From a virus (Duplodnaviria > Heunggongvirae > Uroviricota > Caudoviricetes): a DNA stretch of 6,312 bases. How positions within the stretch are numbered: the stretch's first letter is position 1; each line of letters opens with the position of its first letter. This document shows positions 1 through 6,312 of this stretch, piece after piece. A model generated the notes under the pieces. The model saw only the letters and a program-made list of their open reading frames with translations, did not search any database and was not told where the DNA came from. The stretch is from IMG/VR virus record IMGVR_UViG_2667527806_000009. One strand, 5' to 3'. The translations under genes were made by a program, and so were the position numbers.

Positions 1-69
1 GCTGCATGACAAGGTCATCGGGCATTATCTGAACATAAAACACTATCAGTAAGTTGGAGTCATTACCTA

Positions 70-321
70 CTAACAGGATGCTCTGACTCGCAATTCATCC
101 AGCAGTTTATCATTTCCCATAATGTCACTTACCCTCATCGGTAAAAAAATTGCCTTTCGACCATTACGATACATTATTGATTTTGGGGTTTCAGGGAAGT
201 AATCCATTTCGACTATAACTGACAGGTCATCACGACGTATGACTGCGTATTTGCTACTAAATAGTTTCTTTATTTTTTCCACGATGCCCCCAGGTTTATA
301 AGTACAAACGGTTATATCCAC
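70..321 (-). CDS. rem: Small hypothetical protein, 83 aa, possibly Rem-like (Qin prophage)
   Basis: Minus-strand ORF with GTG start and no clear Shine-Dalgarno; AT-rich coding sequence. Called Rem-like only from size (83 aa) and position next to a hokD-type gene, as in E. coli K-12 Qin; sequence identity was not verified from memory. Confidence 0.4.
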   Translation of the reverse strand: MDITVCTYKPGGIVEKIKKLFSSKYAVIRRDDLSVIVEMDYFPETPKSIMYRNGRKAIFLPMRVSDIMGNDKLLDELRVRASC

Positions 322-464
322 ATAGAGACAAAAATATTAATCTGATAAATATTTATTTCACGCCGTATATTTGATTGTTTAATGTGCAAGTACAATGACT
401 TTTATTTTTTGTTGTGTATATAATCAAATATATGGTTATTTTTCACCCTGCGTATTCAGCACGC

Positions 465-490
465 AACAAAAAACCCGCCGAAGCGGGTTT
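465..490 (-). terminator. Rho-independent terminator at the 3' end of the hok transcript
   Basis: Minus-strand hairpin CCCGC-TTCG-GCGGG (plus 474-487) followed by a U-tract (minus strand GGGTTTTTTGTT), 70-90 nt downstream of the hok stop codon. Confidence 0.7.
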
Positions 491-557
491 AGTGCGGGTG
501 CGTTGAGGATGCCTGACACATGAGAGGTGGCGAGGGATTTCTCCCCCGCCTGGTCTC

Positions 558-713
558 TTACTCCTCAGGTTCGTAAGCTGTGAAGACAGCGACCTCCGTC
601 TGGCCGGTTCGGATTCGTACCTCGCAGAGGTCTTTCCTCGTTACCAGTGCCGTCACTATGACGGTTAAACAGATGACGATCAGGGCGATTAACATCGCCT
701 TTTGCTGCTTCAT
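558..713 (-). CDS. hok: Hok/Gef family type I toxin, 51 aa (HokD/RelF-like)
   Basis: Translation MKQQKAMLIALIVICLTVIVTALVTRKDLCEVRIRTGQTEVAVFTAYEPEE has the Hok family layout: one N-terminal transmembrane helix and the conserved C-terminal periplasmic segment with Cys. AAGGAG lies about 9 nt upstream of this ATG. Confidence 0.85.
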   Translation of the reverse strand: MKQQKAMLIALIVICLTVIVTALVTRKDLCEVRIRTGQTEVAVFTAYEPEE

Positions 714-770
714 AGCCTGCTTCTCCTTGCCTTTCGGCACGTAAGAGGCTAACCTACATTTGTGAGACAT
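558..770 (-). CDS. mok-like upstream reading frame (in-frame N-terminal extension of hok, 70 aa)
   Basis: ATG at 768-770 within the conserved hok leader, at the position where the mok frame starts in characterised hok/sok loci. Here it is in frame with hok. Whether it is translated as a separate modulator is not determinable from sequence. Confidence 0.35.
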   Translation of the reverse strand: MSHKCRLASYVPKGKEKQAMKQQKAMLIALIVICLTVIVTALVTRKDLCEVRIRTGQTEVAVFTAYEPEE

Positions 771-895
771 AGATTGGGCCTCAGATTAATGTTAAGCGTC
801 TTGCAGGACGCGTAATGTTAACTGGGGCTTTTCTCTGTCTGCCTTACAGTGGCATGCCCGAGGCAGACAGCCTCAAGCACCCGCAGCAATCTTAC
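714..895 (-). promoter_or_regulatory. hok mRNA 5' leader (sok target, translation-control stem-loops)
   Basis: Minus-strand leader begins near GGGTGCTTGAGGC and contains paired segments (plus 835-843 CTGTCTGCC with 862-870 GGCAGACAG). A diverged second copy lies at 2868-3014. Confidence 0.6.
760..838 (+). ncRNA. Putative Sok-like antisense RNA (copy A)
   Basis: Plus-strand segment antisense to the hok leader and mok start, with a candidate promoter (TTGCCT, 17 nt, TAACCT at 727-755) and ending near GGGGCTTTTCTCT. Boundaries are approximate and by analogy to plasmid R1 hok/sok. Confidence 0.35.
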
Positions 896-1051
896 CGATA
901 CCGATAAGAAAACGCTATTTTTTATTGCCAGCACCTTCTATCCAGGCTAATTTATCTGCGTCAGAACGGCGCAATGCGCTCGCCTGAGATACGTTTACTT
1001 GCCATGGTAACAACAGGTAACGGCAATTGCTGTTTCTGTTTTGTTTCCTTC

Positions 1052-1088
1052 AAAAACCCCGGACCATCAATCCGGGGTTTTTGTTTGT
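1052..1088. terminator. Bidirectional rho-independent terminator
   Basis: AAAAA-CCCCGGA-CCATCAA-TCCGGGG-TTTTTGTTTGTT: a 7-bp GC-rich stem flanked by an A-run and a T-run, immediately downstream of the last gene of the minus-strand operon (stop at 1168). Confidence 0.75.
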
Positions 1089-1167
1089 TAACCCCAACGG
1101 CAAATCGAATACACCACCAGCGCCACCGCCATCGCAATTCCTACCGTGGTGAATGCCTCAGGCCAGG

Positions 1168-1533
1168 TCATTGATTCACCTCCTGCGGTGGTTCCGGTAG
1201 CGGCATCCAGTGAGTTGAGCTCTCTACTTCAACGCCGTCTTTGTCCACAAAAGCCATCTTATTCCCGCCACGAGTGGGGCAAAAAACCTTATCCCAGGAA
1301 CCGGGGAATACATTCCCGAGATCATCGAGAAGAATCACATCGCAATATTCAGCAGGAACTGCATCACTACAGCTTATCCAGCCAGCCAGAGTTACCGGAG
1401 AGTTGCCAGCCTTACGCATGGCCATTTCCACGATTTCAACCATATCTCCTGGTGGAATTTTACAAAGTTGCCCAATACATTTCTGCTGCCTGGCATATTC
1501 GAGAATGTGCTCCAGTTTGGTTCGATTAATCAT
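1168..1533 (-). CDS. Hypothetical phage protein, 121 aa
   Basis: Minus-strand ORF with GGGAG about 7 nt upstream of the ATG; its start overlaps the upstream gene stop (TAATG), indicating translational coupling. No family recognised. Confidence 0.7.
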   Translation of the reverse strand: MINRTKLEHILEYARQQKCIGQLCKIPPGDMVEIVEMAMRKAGNSPVTLAGWISCSDAVPAEYCDVILLDDLGNVFPGSWDKVFCPTRGGNKMAFVDKDGVEVESSTHWMPLPEPPQEVNQ

Positions 1534-2198
1534 TATTTATCTCCCTTAAGCATGGCAGCGCGGCAGGCGTTCCAGCCATCAACATAATCAAACGTATTAC
1601 TATCGTTTGGCCCGATTTCATCCGGCACTATCGGCTCTGGTTGGATAGTGACGTTGGCAAAGGCAGCACGCAAACCGGTTTTAATTTCTTCGATTTCATC
1701 AGAGCCAAGCGATGAATCTGACAGTGCGTGATGGAATGCGTAAGCCATGTCGTCGTTTACTGCAACCGGCACTGCCGGCGCTGCGTAAAGCGGTGTTATA
1801 TCTGCCCGAAAATCACATGCTTTATGCAGTCGTACCCAACGCTCAACTTCCGCTTTGTAAAAATATATAGCAGTGAACGTATTAGATTCCTGGTCAACTT
1901 GAGTAAACGTCACCTTCCACGCTACAGCTACGGCTTTCCATCCATCAGGTTGTCGCATTCGCGGGGCAGCATAAAGCTCATGCATTCCATCAGGCAGCGA
2001 GTGACCCACATACTCACCGAACCCATCAATACACATGCCCCCATCTTCAACAATGCATTCCGCTACAGGCTCTGCTTCCAGTGATGCCAGAGCGATAAGC
2101 GCCAGTTCACGAATTTCACCGCCGTCTATATCGTCAATATCATCGCGGCCAGAAATGTTAGCCAGCCATTGCAGTCGCTCTTTGGTAATAGTAGTCAT
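1533..2198 (-). CDS. Hypothetical phage protein, 221 aa, acidic N-terminal region
   Basis: Minus-strand ORF with AAGGGG 7 nt upstream of the ATG; start overlaps the HNH gene stop (ATGA). Asp/Glu-rich N-terminus (DDIDDIDGGEIRE). No family recognised. Confidence 0.75.
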   Translation of the reverse strand: MTTITKERLQWLANISGRDDIDDIDGGEIRELALIALASLEAEPVAECIVEDGGMCIDGFGEYVGHSLPDGMHELYAAPRMRQPDGWKAVAVAWKVTFTQVDQESNTFTAIYFYKAEVERWVRLHKACDFRADITPLYAAPAVPVAVNDDMAYAFHHALSDSSLGSDEIEEIKTGLRAAFANVTIQPEPIVPDEIGPNDSNTFDYVDGWNACRAAMLKGDK

Positions 2199-2560
2199 GC
2201 CGTAGCCCCTTCTTGATATATTTCAAACCAGAACACAACCGGGTCAGATTTCATTTCAACCAATCCCATACGAACCAGCGCTTTGCCTTTCCCGGACGCA
2301 AGGAATTCACGACGACCATCACTGATAATTCGTCGATAATCTTCCAGGCTACTGCAATGCTTGTGCAGATTGCATGGGTGGCATTCTGGTACCATGTTGG
2401 ATATATCGTCACGTTCCTGGTGAAGCATATTTCCATCAAAACGAATGACCGGTTTTACATGGTCTGCATGCCACTTTTCGCCAAGTTCGCAGCCGCAATA
2501 AGCGCAGCGACCACCGAACTTCATGCGCAGTTCTGCACGTTGTTTTTTCGTCAGTGCCAT
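2195..2560 (-). CDS. HNH endonuclease, 121 aa
   Basis: Translation contains the HNH motif: CAYCGC, HADH, an Asn, then CHPCNLHKH. Start placed at the internal ATG (MALTKK...) preceded by AAGGAAAG at good spacing; the 151-aa ORF-track extension from 2650 has no SD and would overlap the upstream small ORF. Confidence 0.8.
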   Translation of the reverse strand: MALTKKQRAELRMKFGGRCAYCGCELGEKWHADHVKPVIRFDGNMLHQERDDISNMVPECHPCNLHKHCSSLEDYRRIISDGRREFLASGKGKALVRMGLVEMKSDPVVFWFEIYQEGATA

Positions 2561-2561
2561 A

Positions 2562-2780
2562 TCAGCTTTCCTTATACGGATTAATTTTATTGTGCAGTGT
2601 GTTGAATGACGCCCATACCACGTCGTTATACAATTCAATAACTGGCTCAATTATTTTTCCGATTATCCAGACAAAAATTTGCGGGGATATCGGTGTCATC
2701 AACACGATAAACAGAATGAGAAACAGGAATTCTGTTGTTCTACTCTTTCGCGGATATTTTTTTCTAAATAATGTAACCAT
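2562..2780 (-). CDS. Small hydrophobic (putative membrane) protein, 72 aa
   Basis: Minus-strand ORF with a hydrophobic stretch (FLFLILFIVLMTPISPQIFVWIIGKII); its stop is 1 nt before the HNH start (TGAnATG). The ATG sits 6 nt after the terminal hairpin of the 70-bp repeat. AT-rich with no canonical SD, so coding status is uncertain. Confidence 0.4.
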   Translation of the reverse strand: MVTLFRKKYPRKSRTTEFLFLILFIVLMTPISPQIFVWIIGKIIEPVIELYNDVVWASFNTLHNKINPYKES

Positions 2781-2786
2781 TCATTA

Positions 2787-2856
2787 CCGCCCTTTCGGGC
2801 GGTCTCCTGATGATTTGAGGGTGCAGAAATCCCTCCGGTTAAGGATTAAATTTTTA
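2787..2856. repeat. 70-bp structured direct repeat, copy 1 (abuts the N gap)
   Basis: Identical over all 70 nt to 3816-3885. Contains a GNRA-type hairpin (minus strand CCGCCC-GAAA-GGGCGG) and a second stem GAGGG..CCCTC. May extend into the N run. Confidence 0.9.
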
Positions 2857-2866
2857 NNNNNNNNNN
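2857..2866. other. Run of 10 N (unresolved sequence or scaffold gap)
   Basis: Ten ambiguous bases lie between the 70-bp repeat and the hok-B leader, where a hok-type CDS of about 180 bp would be expected. Confidence 0.95.
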
Positions 2867-2867
2867 T

Positions 2868-3014
2868 GTAAGAGGCTAACCTACATGTGCAAAGCATGAA
2901 ATTGGCCTCAGATTAATGTTAAGCGTCTTGCCGGACGCGTAATGTTAACTGGGGCTTTTCTCTATCTGCCTTTTGGTGTTCATGCCTGAAGCAGATAGCC
3001 TCAAGCACCCGCAG
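2868..3014 (-). promoter_or_regulatory. Second hok-type leader (hok-B) with mok-like start, truncated by the gap
   Basis: About 147 bp alignable to 741-886 at roughly 85-90% identity by eye. A mok-like ATG at 2895-2897 (minus) opens a frame (MLCTCRLASY...) that runs into the N gap. Confidence 0.6.
2887..2965 (+). ncRNA. Putative Sok-like antisense RNA (copy B)
   Basis: Homologous to the copy-A antisense segment, ending near GGGGCTTTTCTCT; the expected -35 region would fall in the N gap. Boundaries approximate. Confidence 0.3.
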
Positions 3015-3067
3015 TCATTCTACTTACCTCGCCAATATGAAATCAATCAGAAAGGTGCCCCATAAAA

Positions 3068-3754
3068 TCACTCCTTCTCTTCTTTACCGTAGTGGAGTTG
3101 ACCAATTTTGATAAGAGGGCGTCCCTGAGATTTGCGGTGTAGATTGGTATCGCGCAGAGAATACACACAGCCACAATATTCCTGCTGATAGAATTTTTCG
3201 CGCTTGCTGATTTCAATCATACGGGACGAGCCGCCCTGCTTGCGCCAGTTATAATCCCAGTACACCATGCCCGGATAATGCGCGACGGCTCGCCGCCCAC
3301 AGTCGTTAACCTGCTGCATATTTTTCCAGCGTGAAATGCCCAGTGAACTGCTGATCACACTGAAACCATTTTCAGCGGCGTACAGCGCTGTCCGCTCAAA
3401 ACGCATGTCAAAACACATGGTGCAACGGATCCCTCGTTCGGGCTCCCATTCCATTCCTTTGGCTCGTTCAAACCAGTTGTCTGTGTCGTAATCAGCATCA
3501 ATAAACGGCACGCCGTGTTGTTCAGCAAAGCGAATATTCTCATCCTTACGAATTAAATACTCTTTCTGAGGATGAATGTTCGGGTTGTAGAAAAAGATGG
3601 TGTAGTCGATTTCCGAGGCCTGAAGCGCCTCCATCACCTCACCGGAACATGGAGCACAGCAAGAGTGCAGTAGTAGTTTGTTTGCCCCGTTTGGGAGCTC
3701 CAATTTGGGCCGTTTGAAATCAGCAACTGTCATAAATATGTTTATTGAGGTCAT
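3068..3754 (-). CDS. queH: Epoxyqueuosine reductase QueH family protein (DUF208), 228 aa
   Basis: Translation carries the QueH/DUF208 signature Cys motifs: [11 protein letters not shown] near the N-terminus, [14 protein letters not shown], and C-terminal EYCGCVYS. No clear SD before the first ATG, so the exact start is uncertain. Confidence 0.8.
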
Positions 3755-3815
3755 AAAAATATCAAAGAGTGTAGCATTAGAACGGGGCTATCGGAAACAG
3801 ATGTGTGACTGCTCC

Positions 3816-3885
3816 CCGCCCTTTCGGGCGGTCTCCTGATGATTTGAGGGTGCAGAAATCCCTCCGGTTAAGGATTAAATTTTTA
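3816..3885. repeat. 70-bp structured direct repeat, copy 2
   Basis: Identical to 2787-2856, same orientation, offset 1029 bp. Sits in the intergenic space between the 3902 stop and the queH start. Confidence 0.9.
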
Positions 3886-3901
3886 ACAGTGCTAAATTTA
3901 A

Positions 3902-4258
3902 TTATTCAGTTCTGGATTTTGTCGCCCTGCGTATCCGCGCTTTCGCGTTACGCTCAATCTGTATCAGCTTTTCTATATTTCTCCGCCTTTCCTGTTCCTC
4001 CTGGCGCAATAGCCTTACATCATCTGCCAGTCTGGTTTCTCTTTTTGCCACAGAGAGCATCCAGTCAAACGGCTCCACAACCGCACCGCAGATTTTACAG
4101 CGGACCTGACGCTCTTTTTCGTCAACCCGTACAGAGGCGTGATGGCAATATGGTCTTTCCGATGGCTTATAAAGAAAATTAACCTGATTACGAGGGTCAT
4201 CCTCTTTTATCGGAAATAAAACGATATTGCTTAACTCATCTTCTGGTTTTATTTCCAT
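3902..4258 (-). CDS. Small putative zinc-ribbon protein, 118 aa (137 aa if started at 4315)
   Basis: CHH...CKICG Cys/His cluster and a basic, coiled-coil-like C-terminus. Preferred start is the ATG at 4256-4258, preceded by AAGGAG at 6-nt spacing; the alternative ATG at 4313-4315 abuts the upstream stop (TGAATG). Confidence 0.55.
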   Translation of the reverse strand: MEIKPEDELSNIVLFPIKEDDPRNQVNFLYKPSERPYCHHASVRVDEKERQVRCKICGAVVEPFDWMLSVAKRETRLADDVRLLRQEEQERRRNIEKLIQIERNAKARIRRATKSRTE

Positions 4259-4315
4259 GCTCCTCTCCTTTGATGCGAATGCCAGCGGTAATTGAAGCCT
4301 GATAGCTAATTTCAT

Positions 4316-4738
4316 TCACAGTATCGCCTCCTGAAAATTACCCTGATAGAAAGCCAGTACACGCTGCATAGCTTCGCTCTTCCGGCACTCGCGACAGATT
4401 ATATTCAGGCGCCTGTCGTAGCGGCGTATTTCTCCGTCAGGTAATGACCAGATAAGGTCCGGATCAACAACAACCGGTTTCCTCACCTTTACTCTCGAGA
4501 GTTTTTTGCGGGCGCTTTGCCAGTCCTTGCGAGCCTGTTCAGACGGGAATAAGCCGTAGCCAGAATTATATACATCACCACTTGCGACCAGTTCTATGCA
4601 TAAGCGACCGACAGACGCACGACTGATACCTGTTTCATCGGACAACTGCCGAATCGTGACCCGACCGTCCTGATGCACGAGTTCCACAATTCGCGTCTTC
4701 AGTTCTTCCCGCTGTTCGGGAGTAAAAGGTTTCGCCAT
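4316..4738 (-). CDS. Putative winged-helix/HTH DNA-binding protein with C-terminal CxxC, 140 aa
   Basis: AGGAGG upstream of the ATG. HTH-like segment (TIRQLSDETGISRASVGRL) and C-terminal CRECRK. No named family recognised. Confidence 0.7.
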   Translation of the reverse strand: MAKPFTPEQREELKTRIVELVHQDGRVTIRQLSDETGISRASVGRLCIELVASGDVYNSGYGLFPSEQARKDWQSARKKLSRVKVRKPVVVDPDLIWSLPDGEIRRYDRRLNIICRECRKSEAMQRVLAFYQGNFQEAIL

Positions 4739-4752
4739 AAATCCTCCTGAAA

Positions 4753-5499
4753 CTACTTAACAACCCTCGAATGGCTAACATTCGGACGCCAGCTCTCCCA
4801 GTTAAAATTCACCCAGCGCCCGCCGTTCATGACCATGCGATCCATCACCCGCTCGCCGAGAAGTGTATTCATCGCTGCATGGTTAATATTTGTCAGCATC
4901 CCCACACCGCGTAACGATGCCGTCCGGCGATCAACAATCTGGTTCAGTACCACCTGCTCGTTTTTCGTATCCCGCTGCATGCCAATTTCATCCAGGACCA
5001 GCAGGTCAACACCACAAAGCTCCTGTAAAAATTTTTCACCGGATTTGCCGTTGTCGTAGCTCTCATGCAACACGCTCATGACATCGGACACGGTGACGAT
5101 AATCACGCTACGCCCCTTCGCCATCAGCCGGTTGCCAATCGCGGCTGCAAGATGATTTTTTCCGGTGCCGGGCTTACCGCTGAACACAAAATTCGTACAG
5201 CCTGTCATCAGTTCGTCAGCTATGGATTTCGCCTGACTCAGTGCATGTCGCTGACCGTCGTTCTGCGCCCGGTAATTCGCAAACGAACACTTCCGGTGCA
5301 ACGGCTGGATGCCGGAGCGGTTCAGGATTTTTTCCACCCGCAACTGACGATTCAGGCGGTTGATCTCCTCGCAACGTTTCTGGCCTTCAGCAAGTTGCCA
5401 CTCGCGCCACTCCGCAACCGTTCTGAATGGGGCGGTTACATGTGGTGGGGTCAGTCTGCGGATACGCTCCAGAACGCCTCCTGTCGCAATATTTTTCAT
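4753..5499 (-). CDS. DnaC/IstB-like AAA+ helicase loader (phage replication protein P-type), 248 aa
   Basis: Walker A GKPGTGKNHLAAAIG and Walker B LLVLDEIG; positioned directly after the putative initiator, as in lambdoid replication modules with a DnaC-like loader (Rac ydaU/ydaV arrangement). Confidence 0.85.
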   Translation of the reverse strand: MKNIATGGVLERIRRLTPPHVTAPFRTVAEWREWQLAEGQKRCEEINRLNRQLRVEKILNRSGIQPLHRKCSFANYRAQNDGQRHALSQAKSIADELMTGCTNFVFSGKPGTGKNHLAAAIGNRLMAKGRSVIIVTVSDVMSVLHESYDNGKSGEKFLQELCGVDLLVLDEIGMQRDTKNEQVVLNQIVDRRTASLRGVGMLTNINHAAMNTLLGERVMDRMVMNGGRWVNFNWESWRPNVSHSRVVK

Positions 5500-5505
5500 G
5501 GTCTG

Positions 5506-6144
5506 TTACCCCCTGAAGCCTGGCGGGATCGCACTGTCCGGCAACGAGACGGTGTTAACCTGTCGGAGCAACGTCTCAGGCCGAACACCTTTCGGCGCGA
5601 ACAGGCCCTGGTATTCATTGGCGATGCTGTGTCGAATCACCTGCTCAGGTGTAAAACCCTGCTGACGGAATTTTTCCAGTTCCCGTATCGCCCCGTTAGC
5701 GCCCAGCTCCGTTCGAATCGGTTTTCGCAATGCCTGCCTGAACTGGACCCACTCATGCCAGAGTGTTTCTGACAACCAGTCGGGCAGATCAACTGACAAC
5801 GGGTCAAATTTTTTCTGGCGAACAGCCCCACCGATAACCAGAATTCCCTGCTCGGTGTGCCTTGCGATATCACTGCGCCGCAAGACACATATCCCGGTTT
5901 CAACAGCACCGATTTTGAGCAGTGATTTCTGTCGCGGAGAATTTCGGTCAAGCTCGATCCCACACCGGACACCGTTCCTGTCAGTCACGACGATATCAAT
6001 CCGCCCTCCGCAACCGTCACCACGCTCTGGCACCGGATACTCACGACAGACATCCAGGCCAGCAGCCTGCAACGCAACCACCGCAGAATTACAAAATTCC
6101 GCTGCAGTACCGCCAGATAATCTCCCCTCAAGCACTCCAGCCAC
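5506..6144 (-). CDS. Putative phage replication initiation protein (O-like/YdaU-type), 212 aa
   Basis: GTG start; it is the first ATG/GTG/TTG in a frame open back to 6289. Function inferred from its position upstream of the DnaC-like loader (6-nt gap) and a helical C-terminal domain; family not confirmed. Confidence 0.55.
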   Translation of the reverse strand: MAGVLEGRLSGGTAAEFCNSAVVALQAAGLDVCREYPVPERGDGCGGRIDIVVTDRNGVRCGIELDRNSPRQKSLLKIGAVETGICVLRRSDIARHTEQGILVIGGAVRQKKFDPLSVDLPDWLSETLWHEWVQFRQALRKPIRTELGANGAIRELEKFRQQGFTPEQVIRHSIANEYQGLFAPKGVRPETLLRQVNTVSLPDSAIPPGFRG

Positions 6145-6189
6145 AAAATCCCGAAACTCCCTTCCGGAAGGGAAGGGTTTGGGATGGGT

Positions 6190-6225
6190 TAGATCTGTTT
6201 TTAGATCTTTATCTGTATCTTTATT
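6190..6225. repeat. Cluster of short direct repeats (AGATCT x2, ATCTGT x2, ATCTTTAT x2)
   Basis: TTAGATCTGTTTTTAGATCTTTATCTGTATCTTTATT in the upstream region of the replication gene; function unknown (possible protein-binding sites). Confidence 0.3.
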
Positions 6226-6278
6226 AGTTGCCTTTGTGTTGGCATCTAGACTGGCCCCCTGAATCTCCAGACAACCAG

Positions 6279-6298
6279 TATCACTTATTTAAGTGATA
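6279..6298. promoter_or_regulatory. Operator-like inverted repeat (candidate CI/Cro-type repressor site)
   Basis: TATCACTTA-TT-TAAGTGATA: 9-bp perfect inverted arms around a 2-bp centre. TATCAC is the half-site core of lambda operators. Lies upstream of the replication operon at the window edge. Confidence 0.45.
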
Positions 6299-6312
6299 GT
6301 CTTAATACTAGT

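Follow-up and report, generated by a model that had tools for sequence, protein, structure and literature searches.

Identical 70-nt Repeats around a Prophage queH Gene Very Probably Reflect the Mis-Scaffolding of Two Co-Resident Rac-Like Prophages

Introduction

In short-read assemblies of poly-lysogenic, IS-rich Shigella and Escherichia coli, mis-scaffolded or collapsed repeats leave contigs that end at repeat borders. Velvet and SPAdes leave no fewer than 10 N between two contigs whose gap is estimated to be small or negative; a literature search returned no usable documentation of this minimum-10-N convention. The mosaic module junctions of lambdoid phages, which arise in modular evolution, show sharp losses of homology at gene borders, and hok/sok loci (RF01794) are type I toxin-antitoxin systems. 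Phage T4 has split ribosome-binding sites, in which a hairpin brings the SD closer to the AUG, from 22 to 5 nt in gene 38 and from 27 to 11 nt in gene 25 (PMC3014915).

Here we analyzed a 6,312-nt stretch of tailed-phage DNA (the window) in which an earlier note had recognized two identical 70-nt sequences and had taken them to suggest recent duplication, gene conversion or a recombination linker that delimits a queH cargo cassette. Compared with mis-scaffolded short-read assemblies, the window shows no essential difference. It has overhangs of 66-70 nt, what looks like a small repeat-adjacent contig interleaved between larger pieces, and a minimal N gap, and closed genomes resolve its region into two separate loci. 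Both hok leaders of the window match the sok model, but the second locus differs from ordinary hok/sok loci in that it is cut by the scaffold gap, and it lies in no repeat-bounded cassette. As at other lambdoid mosaic junctions, a conserved gene (gene X) and its spacer abut many alternative downstream genes, with a break 0-3 nt from one fixed point. The difference is that the break here falls between an SD-like motif with its hairpin and a start codon, not simply between two complete genes.

Results

Layout of the window and the identical 70-nt pair

The features of the window are listed in Table 1; all of its genes are on the minus strand. Both ends are the terminal 66-67 nt of insertion sequences, so that the window appears to be an entire short-read draft scaffold. 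In closed chromosomes, the gene neighboring the left IS end encodes InsA/IS1 transposase domains (5729-6219 of locus L005), and the gene neighboring the right IS end encodes HTH_Tnp_1 and rve domains. We take the IS3-family element at the right end to be IS2-like.

Table 1. Features of the 6,312-nt window.
Feature	Coordinates	Strand	Remark
Terminal 67 nt of an IS1 copy; left scaffold end	1-67		IS-free relatives match from window 68
Prophage B unique left arm: hok/sok-A, DUF551, 221-aa hypothetical, HNH endonuclease, DUF4014 (2562-2780)	68-2786	-	Pfam domains
AGGAGA (2808-2803), CCGCCC-GAAA-GGGCGG hairpin (2802-2787), 6 nt, DUF4014 ATG (2780)	2787-2808	-	Same motif at 3816-3837
70-mer copy 1, first 70 nt of the inter-prophage repeat; stops at contig end	2787-2856	-	Exact copy of 3816-3885
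10-N run, scaffold gap between two contigs	2857-2866		
Sole prophage-A-specific DNA (949 bp): hok/sok-B leader (2868-3023), queH (3068-3733 or to 3754)	2867-3815	-	
70-mer copy 2, natural context, 16 nt downstream of gene X stop codon	3816-3885	-	
Segment perfectly common to prophages A and B in closed genomes: 70-mer, gene X (3902-4258), part of DUF977	3816-4905	-	
Prophage B right arm: DnaC/YdaV-like (4753-5499), YdaU-like replication gene interrupted by IS	4906-6246	-	
Terminal 66 nt of an IS3-family element, inside the ydaU-like gene; right scaffold end	6247-6312		IS-free L003/L004 matches end at 6246

The queH product matched the Pfam QueH family (E=2.4e-65). No SD-like sequence was present within 32 nt of either candidate queH start (3733 or 3754), and the upstream sequence is AT-rich. 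Gene X encodes a product of 118 aa that includes a CxxC motif region; a TFIIB-type zinc ribbon matches it weakly, below threshold (E=1.7e-4; 21.5 bits, cut-off 29). The hok/sok-A locus is complete at 468-895, with an Rfam sok match at 708-882 on the minus strand, and both leaders exceed the RF01794 gathering score of 59 (118 bits for hok-A and 92 bits for hok-B). We also saw an isrK-like match below threshold at 468-549 (30.6 bits; gathering score, 50), which lies over the 3' end of the hok mRNA and its terminator.

A repeat comparison within the window confirmed that 2787-2856 and 3816-3885 are 100% identical in direct orientation, 1029 bp apart from start to start as reported, a match far in excess of what chance would give over 70 nt. 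The hok-A and hok-B leaders of the window are 84-90% identical, in agreement with the divergence of 10-15% given for them earlier. It had also been noticed that the identity stops at a GNRA hairpin on one side, and this is so on the left, where the pair is limited by CCGCCC-TTTC-GGGCGG and the preceding bases differ (...cattcatta versus ...gactgctcc). The segment between the copies was described as holding only queH and the hok-B leader; it also encloses the assembly gap, a run of 10 N, left unmentioned in the earlier note, that begins immediately after the last base of copy 1.

Because copy 1 abuts the 10 N, the right end of the identity is the end of the known left-contig sequence and not a biological boundary. 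The length of "70 bp" is thus set by a contig end. Of the idea that the copies sit at a module junction, the left edge of the 70-mer stands as a true junction, and the right edge is a contig end only.

Two annotations are by-products of the join. The Rfam sok match of the second leader, at 2844-3010, aligns straight across the 10-N gap into the 70-mer. A candidate ORF of 37 aa at 2784-2897 was rejected, as it exists only by borrowing the mok start across the N gap.

Closed genomes hold the two parts in separate prophages

When complete E. coli genomes were searched with the interval 2400-4300 of the window, none of 5426 covered it to at least 80%. We then relied on closed chromosomes found by lookup of the exact DUF4014 and QueH proteins. 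About ten were obtained, and they match the window at 99.9-100%. These are IS-rich chromosomes of 4.4-4.7 Mb in which the exact DUF4014 and exact QueH proteins are encoded 440-570 kb apart.

The DUF4014 side was compared at four of their loci (L007, L009, L010 and L013). Each had 0 mismatches to window 1-2856 and 2-3 mismatches to window 3816-6312, and in each the sequence of 1-2856 is contiguous with that of 3886-6312 through a single 70-mer, so that the locus equals the window minus 2857-3885. The same holds for strain VL40 (L004) and for the prophage-B loci of E. coli FDAARGOS_944 and Shigella flexneri SFBU1023. Window 4906-6246 is 98.5-99.2% identical to the loci of VL40 and FDAARGOS_944 (L004 and L003).

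The queH side was found elsewhere in the chromosome. Ten QueH loci (L015-L024) are approximately 100% identical to the window from 2867 onward, and the corresponding FDAARGOS_944 locus (L001) is 99.8% identical. Each of the ten has one 70-mer and, toward the position of the gap in the window, an intact hok gene; the hok-B leader is therefore no remnant. FDAARGOS_944 illustrates both arrangements. Its L001 locus reads hokD - leader - queH - 70-mer - X - DUF977 - ydaV, and its L003 locus, approximately 717 kb away, reads hok - DUF551 - hypothetical - HNH - DUF4014 - 70-mer - X and onward, with one exact 70-mer in each. A scan of species representatives showed that Shigella flexneri SFBU1023 (CP182556.1) likewise holds both loci separately (L146 and L147). 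We also observed a 4.44-Mb chromosome, CP178302.1, labelled Escherichia coli ECMA0423, with two prophage loci (L145 and L148) that are both 99.9-100% identical to Shigella-type sequences; in size and content this chromosome resembles those of Shigella.

Across a wider sample, the core motif occurred once per locus in 125 of 125 loci and never as two copies together (0/125), and the window arrangement was absent from all 56 long contigs that were read. A repeat-bounded cassette would have its pair in cis on one continuous molecule; copy 1 ends at the gap, and closed genomes have one copy per locus. Nor did we find an empty site in a genome that lacks the cassette elsewhere, since the queH segment is present in the second prophage of the same genomes, where it keeps its natural neighbors, the hok gene and X. 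No recombinase or transposase acting on the 70-mers was found: only queH and the hok leader lie between the copies, and the IS ends are at the edges of the window.

We conclude that queH is not bracketed by repeats and that each prophage truly has one 70-mer. The earlier note had itself named the finding of a single copy by long reads as evidence against its reading, and one 70-mer per prophage is in effect what the closed relatives, at 99.9-100% identity, show. The duplication of a cis-bounded cargo cassette is accordingly abandoned.

The contig edges lie just inside repeats

We compared the two prophages, A (queH) and B (DUF4014), within single chromosomes. Their perfect identity spans 619 bp in three of the genomes and 1090 bp in a fourth, against 314 bp in FDAARGOS_944. 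This identity begins at base 1 of the 70-mer, with 0 bp of identity to its left. (Apart from FDAARGOS_944, the pairs compared were L009/L019, L007/L018, L010/L020 and L005/L015.) As the A/B identity extends over 314-1090 bp, the 70-mer is merely the first 70 nt of a repeat that exceeds short reads. Beyond the perfect block, A and B are 8-26% diverged per 100-bp bin, and their hok leaders are approximately 10-13% diverged in the closed genomes. The window agrees with prophage B at approximately 480-500 sites that discriminate A from B, the first of which falls at 4712-4906 depending on the genome. Because the window follows B rightward of approximately 4700-4900, the 949 bp that follow the gap are its only A-specific DNA.

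The left edge of the gap lies 70 nt into the perfect repeat of 619-1090 bp. The right edge is the first base past a second, shorter repeat: base 2867 (T) is the first hok-B-specific base relative to hok-A (C at window 740), and directly to the left of this position the closed genomes hold a stretch of 102-115 bp that is identical to hok-A. The window itself includes 67 nt of an IS1 copy at its left end and 66 nt of an IS3-family element at its right end. With the gap edges and the window ends at such positions, all four contig edges sit 0-70 nt into repeats, which is a signature of short-read graph assembly. A single k-mer size for all of the overhangs was considered and rejected, as 70, 67 and 66 nt are close but unequal. 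QueH was mostly found on contigs of less than 2 kb, and most contigs with DUF4014 measured 2-5 kb; these sizes agree with those expected of repeat-bounded fragments of approximately 1.1 and 2.9 kb.

The perfect identity of 0.6-1.1 kb between co-resident prophages would fit recent inter-prophage recombination or gene conversion. To this extent the idea of gene conversion or recombination put forward earlier survives; the pair of repeats in cis to which it was attached does not.

Probable origin of the window by mis-scaffolding

Judging from these near-identical relatives, we consider it highly probable that the direct-repeat pair is the product of a mis-scaffolded short-read assembly of two prophages. 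The source genome, most likely that of Shigella flexneri, would carry two Rac-like (ydaS/T/U/V-type) lambdoid prophages. Prophage B would have the order hok-A ... HNH - DUF4014 - 70-mer - X - DUF977 - ydaV - ydaU, and prophage A the order hok-B - leader - queH - 70-mer - X - DUF977 and onward. An assembler unable to resolve the 0.6-1.1 kb A/B repeat that starts at base 1 of the 70-mer would halt the contig of the B left arm 70 nt into that repeat. A second contig would open immediately past the hok repeat of approximately 110 bp with the 949 bp that are unique to prophage A, pass through the shared repeat and leave it into the right arm of B. The scaffolder would then have linked the two contigs by a minimal gap of 10 N. 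The gap, the repeat boundaries and the single-copy structure of the closed relatives are direct observations, and from them we infer the exact behavior of the assembler.

The 10 N might instead mask 10 real bases. We rejected this possibility: the GTDB species representatives, IMG/VR and the JGI metagenomes contain no contig in which 10 bases, or any number from 0 to 30, link the end of the 70-mer with the hok-B leader, and the closed genomes continue differently on both sides. It is likewise very improbable that the arrangement is real in the source strain, with the hok-B leader, queH and a second 70-mer inserted or duplicated beside DUF4014 and a short unresolved or masked junction hidden under the Ns. 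In favor of this reading, the copies show no mismatch, and related genomes do contain both parental prophages, between which recombination could in principle build hybrids. Against it, homologous exchange at the shared segment swaps flanks without duplicating the 70-mer, an illegitimate join would be needed precisely under the Ns, at the end of the hok repeat and 70 nt into the large repeat, a hok leader would be stranded without its toxin gene, and no closed genome, sampled locus or public contig has the arrangement.

The 70-mer is a conserved spacer at a mosaic junction

Mis-scaffolding would account for the pairing of the 70-mers. The 70-mer itself is common, being present in 1578 of 5426 closed E. 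coli genomes at a median of one copy per genome (maximum, five) and always in intergenic position. On the transcribed (minus) strand it begins 16 nt past the stop codon of gene X and reads UAAAAAUUUAAUCCUUAACCGGAGGGAUUUCUGCACCCUCAAAUCAUC-AGGAGA-CCGCCC-GAAA-GGGCGG. It is an ordinary conserved spacer downstream of gene X that ends in AGGAG(G/A) and a GNRA hairpin before the first gene of the variable region. An exact match to the 22-nt core was also seen in a 4-kb contig of a 'Candidatus Aenigmatarchaeota' MAG (JAUXAV010000104.1, 1761-1782). Its flanks are unrelated and gave no BLAST match to the window, and with approximately 0.07 chance matches expected in 596 Gb it is probably a coincidence.

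On the gene-X side the sequence is conserved, and on the other side we found at least six unrelated genes: DUF7167, Ead/Ea22-like, DUF4014, an unnamed family, Q-antiterminator-like and QueH. Homology is lost within 0-3 nt of the hairpin. Of 122 loci, 110 have the start of the first ORF 2-11 nt beyond the hairpin, and the genes mostly attach at 6-11 nt. The left edge of the 70-mer is therefore a lambdoid mosaic boundary in the ordinary sense.

We examined the structure of the spacer. The 16-nt GNRA hairpin has a folding energy of -12.4 kcal/mol, and the whole 70-mer folds better than its shuffles on either strand (z from -2.4 to -3.1). A search of Rfam 15 at E<=1 assigned the 70-mer to no family; within the window, only the two sok hits exceeded the gathering score, and the 13-nt tail of the gap-crossing sok alignment was the sole overlap with the 70-mer. 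This is consistent with the earlier remark that the sequence is no known IS end, tRNA or CRISPR repeat. The covariation test covered two helices, the sequence of the middle hairpin (GAGGG/CCCUC) being fixed by the sampling pattern. Among sequences 95% alike, it counted one double change from GC to AU, 17 one-sided changes to U-G (transcribed strand) and 14 unpaired cells, numbers equal to those of shuffled controls. A small ORF through the 70-mer was also considered. The minus-strand frame is open for 30 codons and ends with TAA or TAG right after the hairpin, but in natural context it lacks both an SD and a start codon (ATG, GTG or TTG); we rejected it as a gene.

A possible split ribosome-binding site

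The position of the hairpin between an SD-like motif and the following gene resembles the split sites of T4. The sequence upstream of DUF4014 has its best anti-SD match (UCAGGAGA, -7.4 kcal/mol) at a distance of 22 nt from the ATG; for DUF977, X, HNH, the 221-aa gene and DUF551, the corresponding distance is 3-7 nt. Directly 5' of the hairpin is AGGAGG in the sampled loci and AGGAGA in the window, and on the transcribed strand the hairpin is followed by UAAUGAAUGG or GGAGCAGUC. The spacers from hairpin to start codon are AT-rich and lack an SD in five of the six cargo families that start close to the hairpin, the exception being the Q-like gene. The layout of SD, hairpin, 6 to 11 nt and ATG precedes at least five unrelated genes and was seen in 110 of the 122 sampled loci. 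It has the features of a split ribosome-binding site: an SD more than 15 nt from the start, none in the normal position, and a hairpin that would restore a spacing of 5-11 nt. QueH does not use the arrangement, as its start is 61-82 nt away and neither candidate start is preceded by an SD.

By analogy with T4, we tentatively propose that AGGAG(G/A) and the GNRA hairpin form a split ribosome-binding site that is portable and part of the conserved upstream module. This is a candidate role only, though the likeliest one we see for the hairpin. The hairpin may bring the SD to working distance of the start codon, and that SD would serve the translation of any gene that recombines in 6-11 nt behind the hairpin and lacks one itself. 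As in genes 38 and 25 of T4, the SD and the AUG are 22-25 nt apart linearly, the hairpin would cut this to 6-9 nt, and the spacer holds no other SD. The present case differs in that the hairpin lies in an upstream conserved module and would serve different downstream genes; the T4 sites also have no sequence relation to the spacer hairpin.

We weighed two other roles, neither of which we think likely. The hairpin could act in the transcription of the early-right operon and not in translation, as a terminator, as an antitermination site of the nut/boxB type, or as an element for RNA processing or stabilization. In lambda, the nin terminators are located downstream of the replication genes, and here too a stable GNRA hairpin (-12.4 kcal/mol), with fold scores of z from -2.6 to -3.1, follows replication genes. 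A scan for Rho-independent terminators, however, gave 0 terminator-like sites in 2500-4100, and the hairpin has no U-tract. No boxA-like CGCTCTT occurs on the minus strand of the window, which is the transcribed one; the motif is on the plus strand only, at 2176, 4110 and 4375. There is neither an Rfam match nor significant covariation, and a transcription signal would leave unexplained why the start codons of different genes lie 6-11 nt from the hairpin.

The second role is that of a dedicated recombination linker, in which the hairpin or its flanks would actively promote the exchange of cargo modules between lambdoid prophages. Inter-prophage homology does start exactly at the hairpin, no fewer than six unrelated gene families adjoin it at 0-3 nt, and the 70-mer is widespread (1578/5426) and always intergenic. 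Sharp junctions at gene borders are nevertheless expected when selection acts on random recombinants that keep both genes and their translation signals, and the conserved side merely continues into gene X as ordinary homology. No recombinase gene or recognizable site accompanies the 70-mer. We regard such a linker as improbable, to about the same degree as a transcription signal, and favor the split ribosome-binding site as the more plausible, still tentative, role.

Discussion

The original reading would have implied a new repeat-bounded cargo cassette that carries a queuosine-pathway gene in prophages, and there is no such cassette. The case carries a caution for draft Shigella and E. coli assemblies, in which perfect repeats that touch a run of Ns should be treated as overlaps between contigs at inter-prophage repeats.

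The remaining findings are modest. Co-resident prophages have a block of 0.6-1.1 kb without any difference, which is consistent with recent exchange between them. In addition, a sharp mosaic junction coincides with a widespread conserved spacer, which may provide a common translation-initiation leader to whatever gene comes next. If the split-site proposal is correct, it would explain a mosaic junction of Rac-like prophages that lies between an SD and a start codon. The spacer would then correspond, in lambdoid prophages, to the T4 gene 38 and 25 sites and offer a mechanism by which the exchange of cargo at the hairpin is tolerated.
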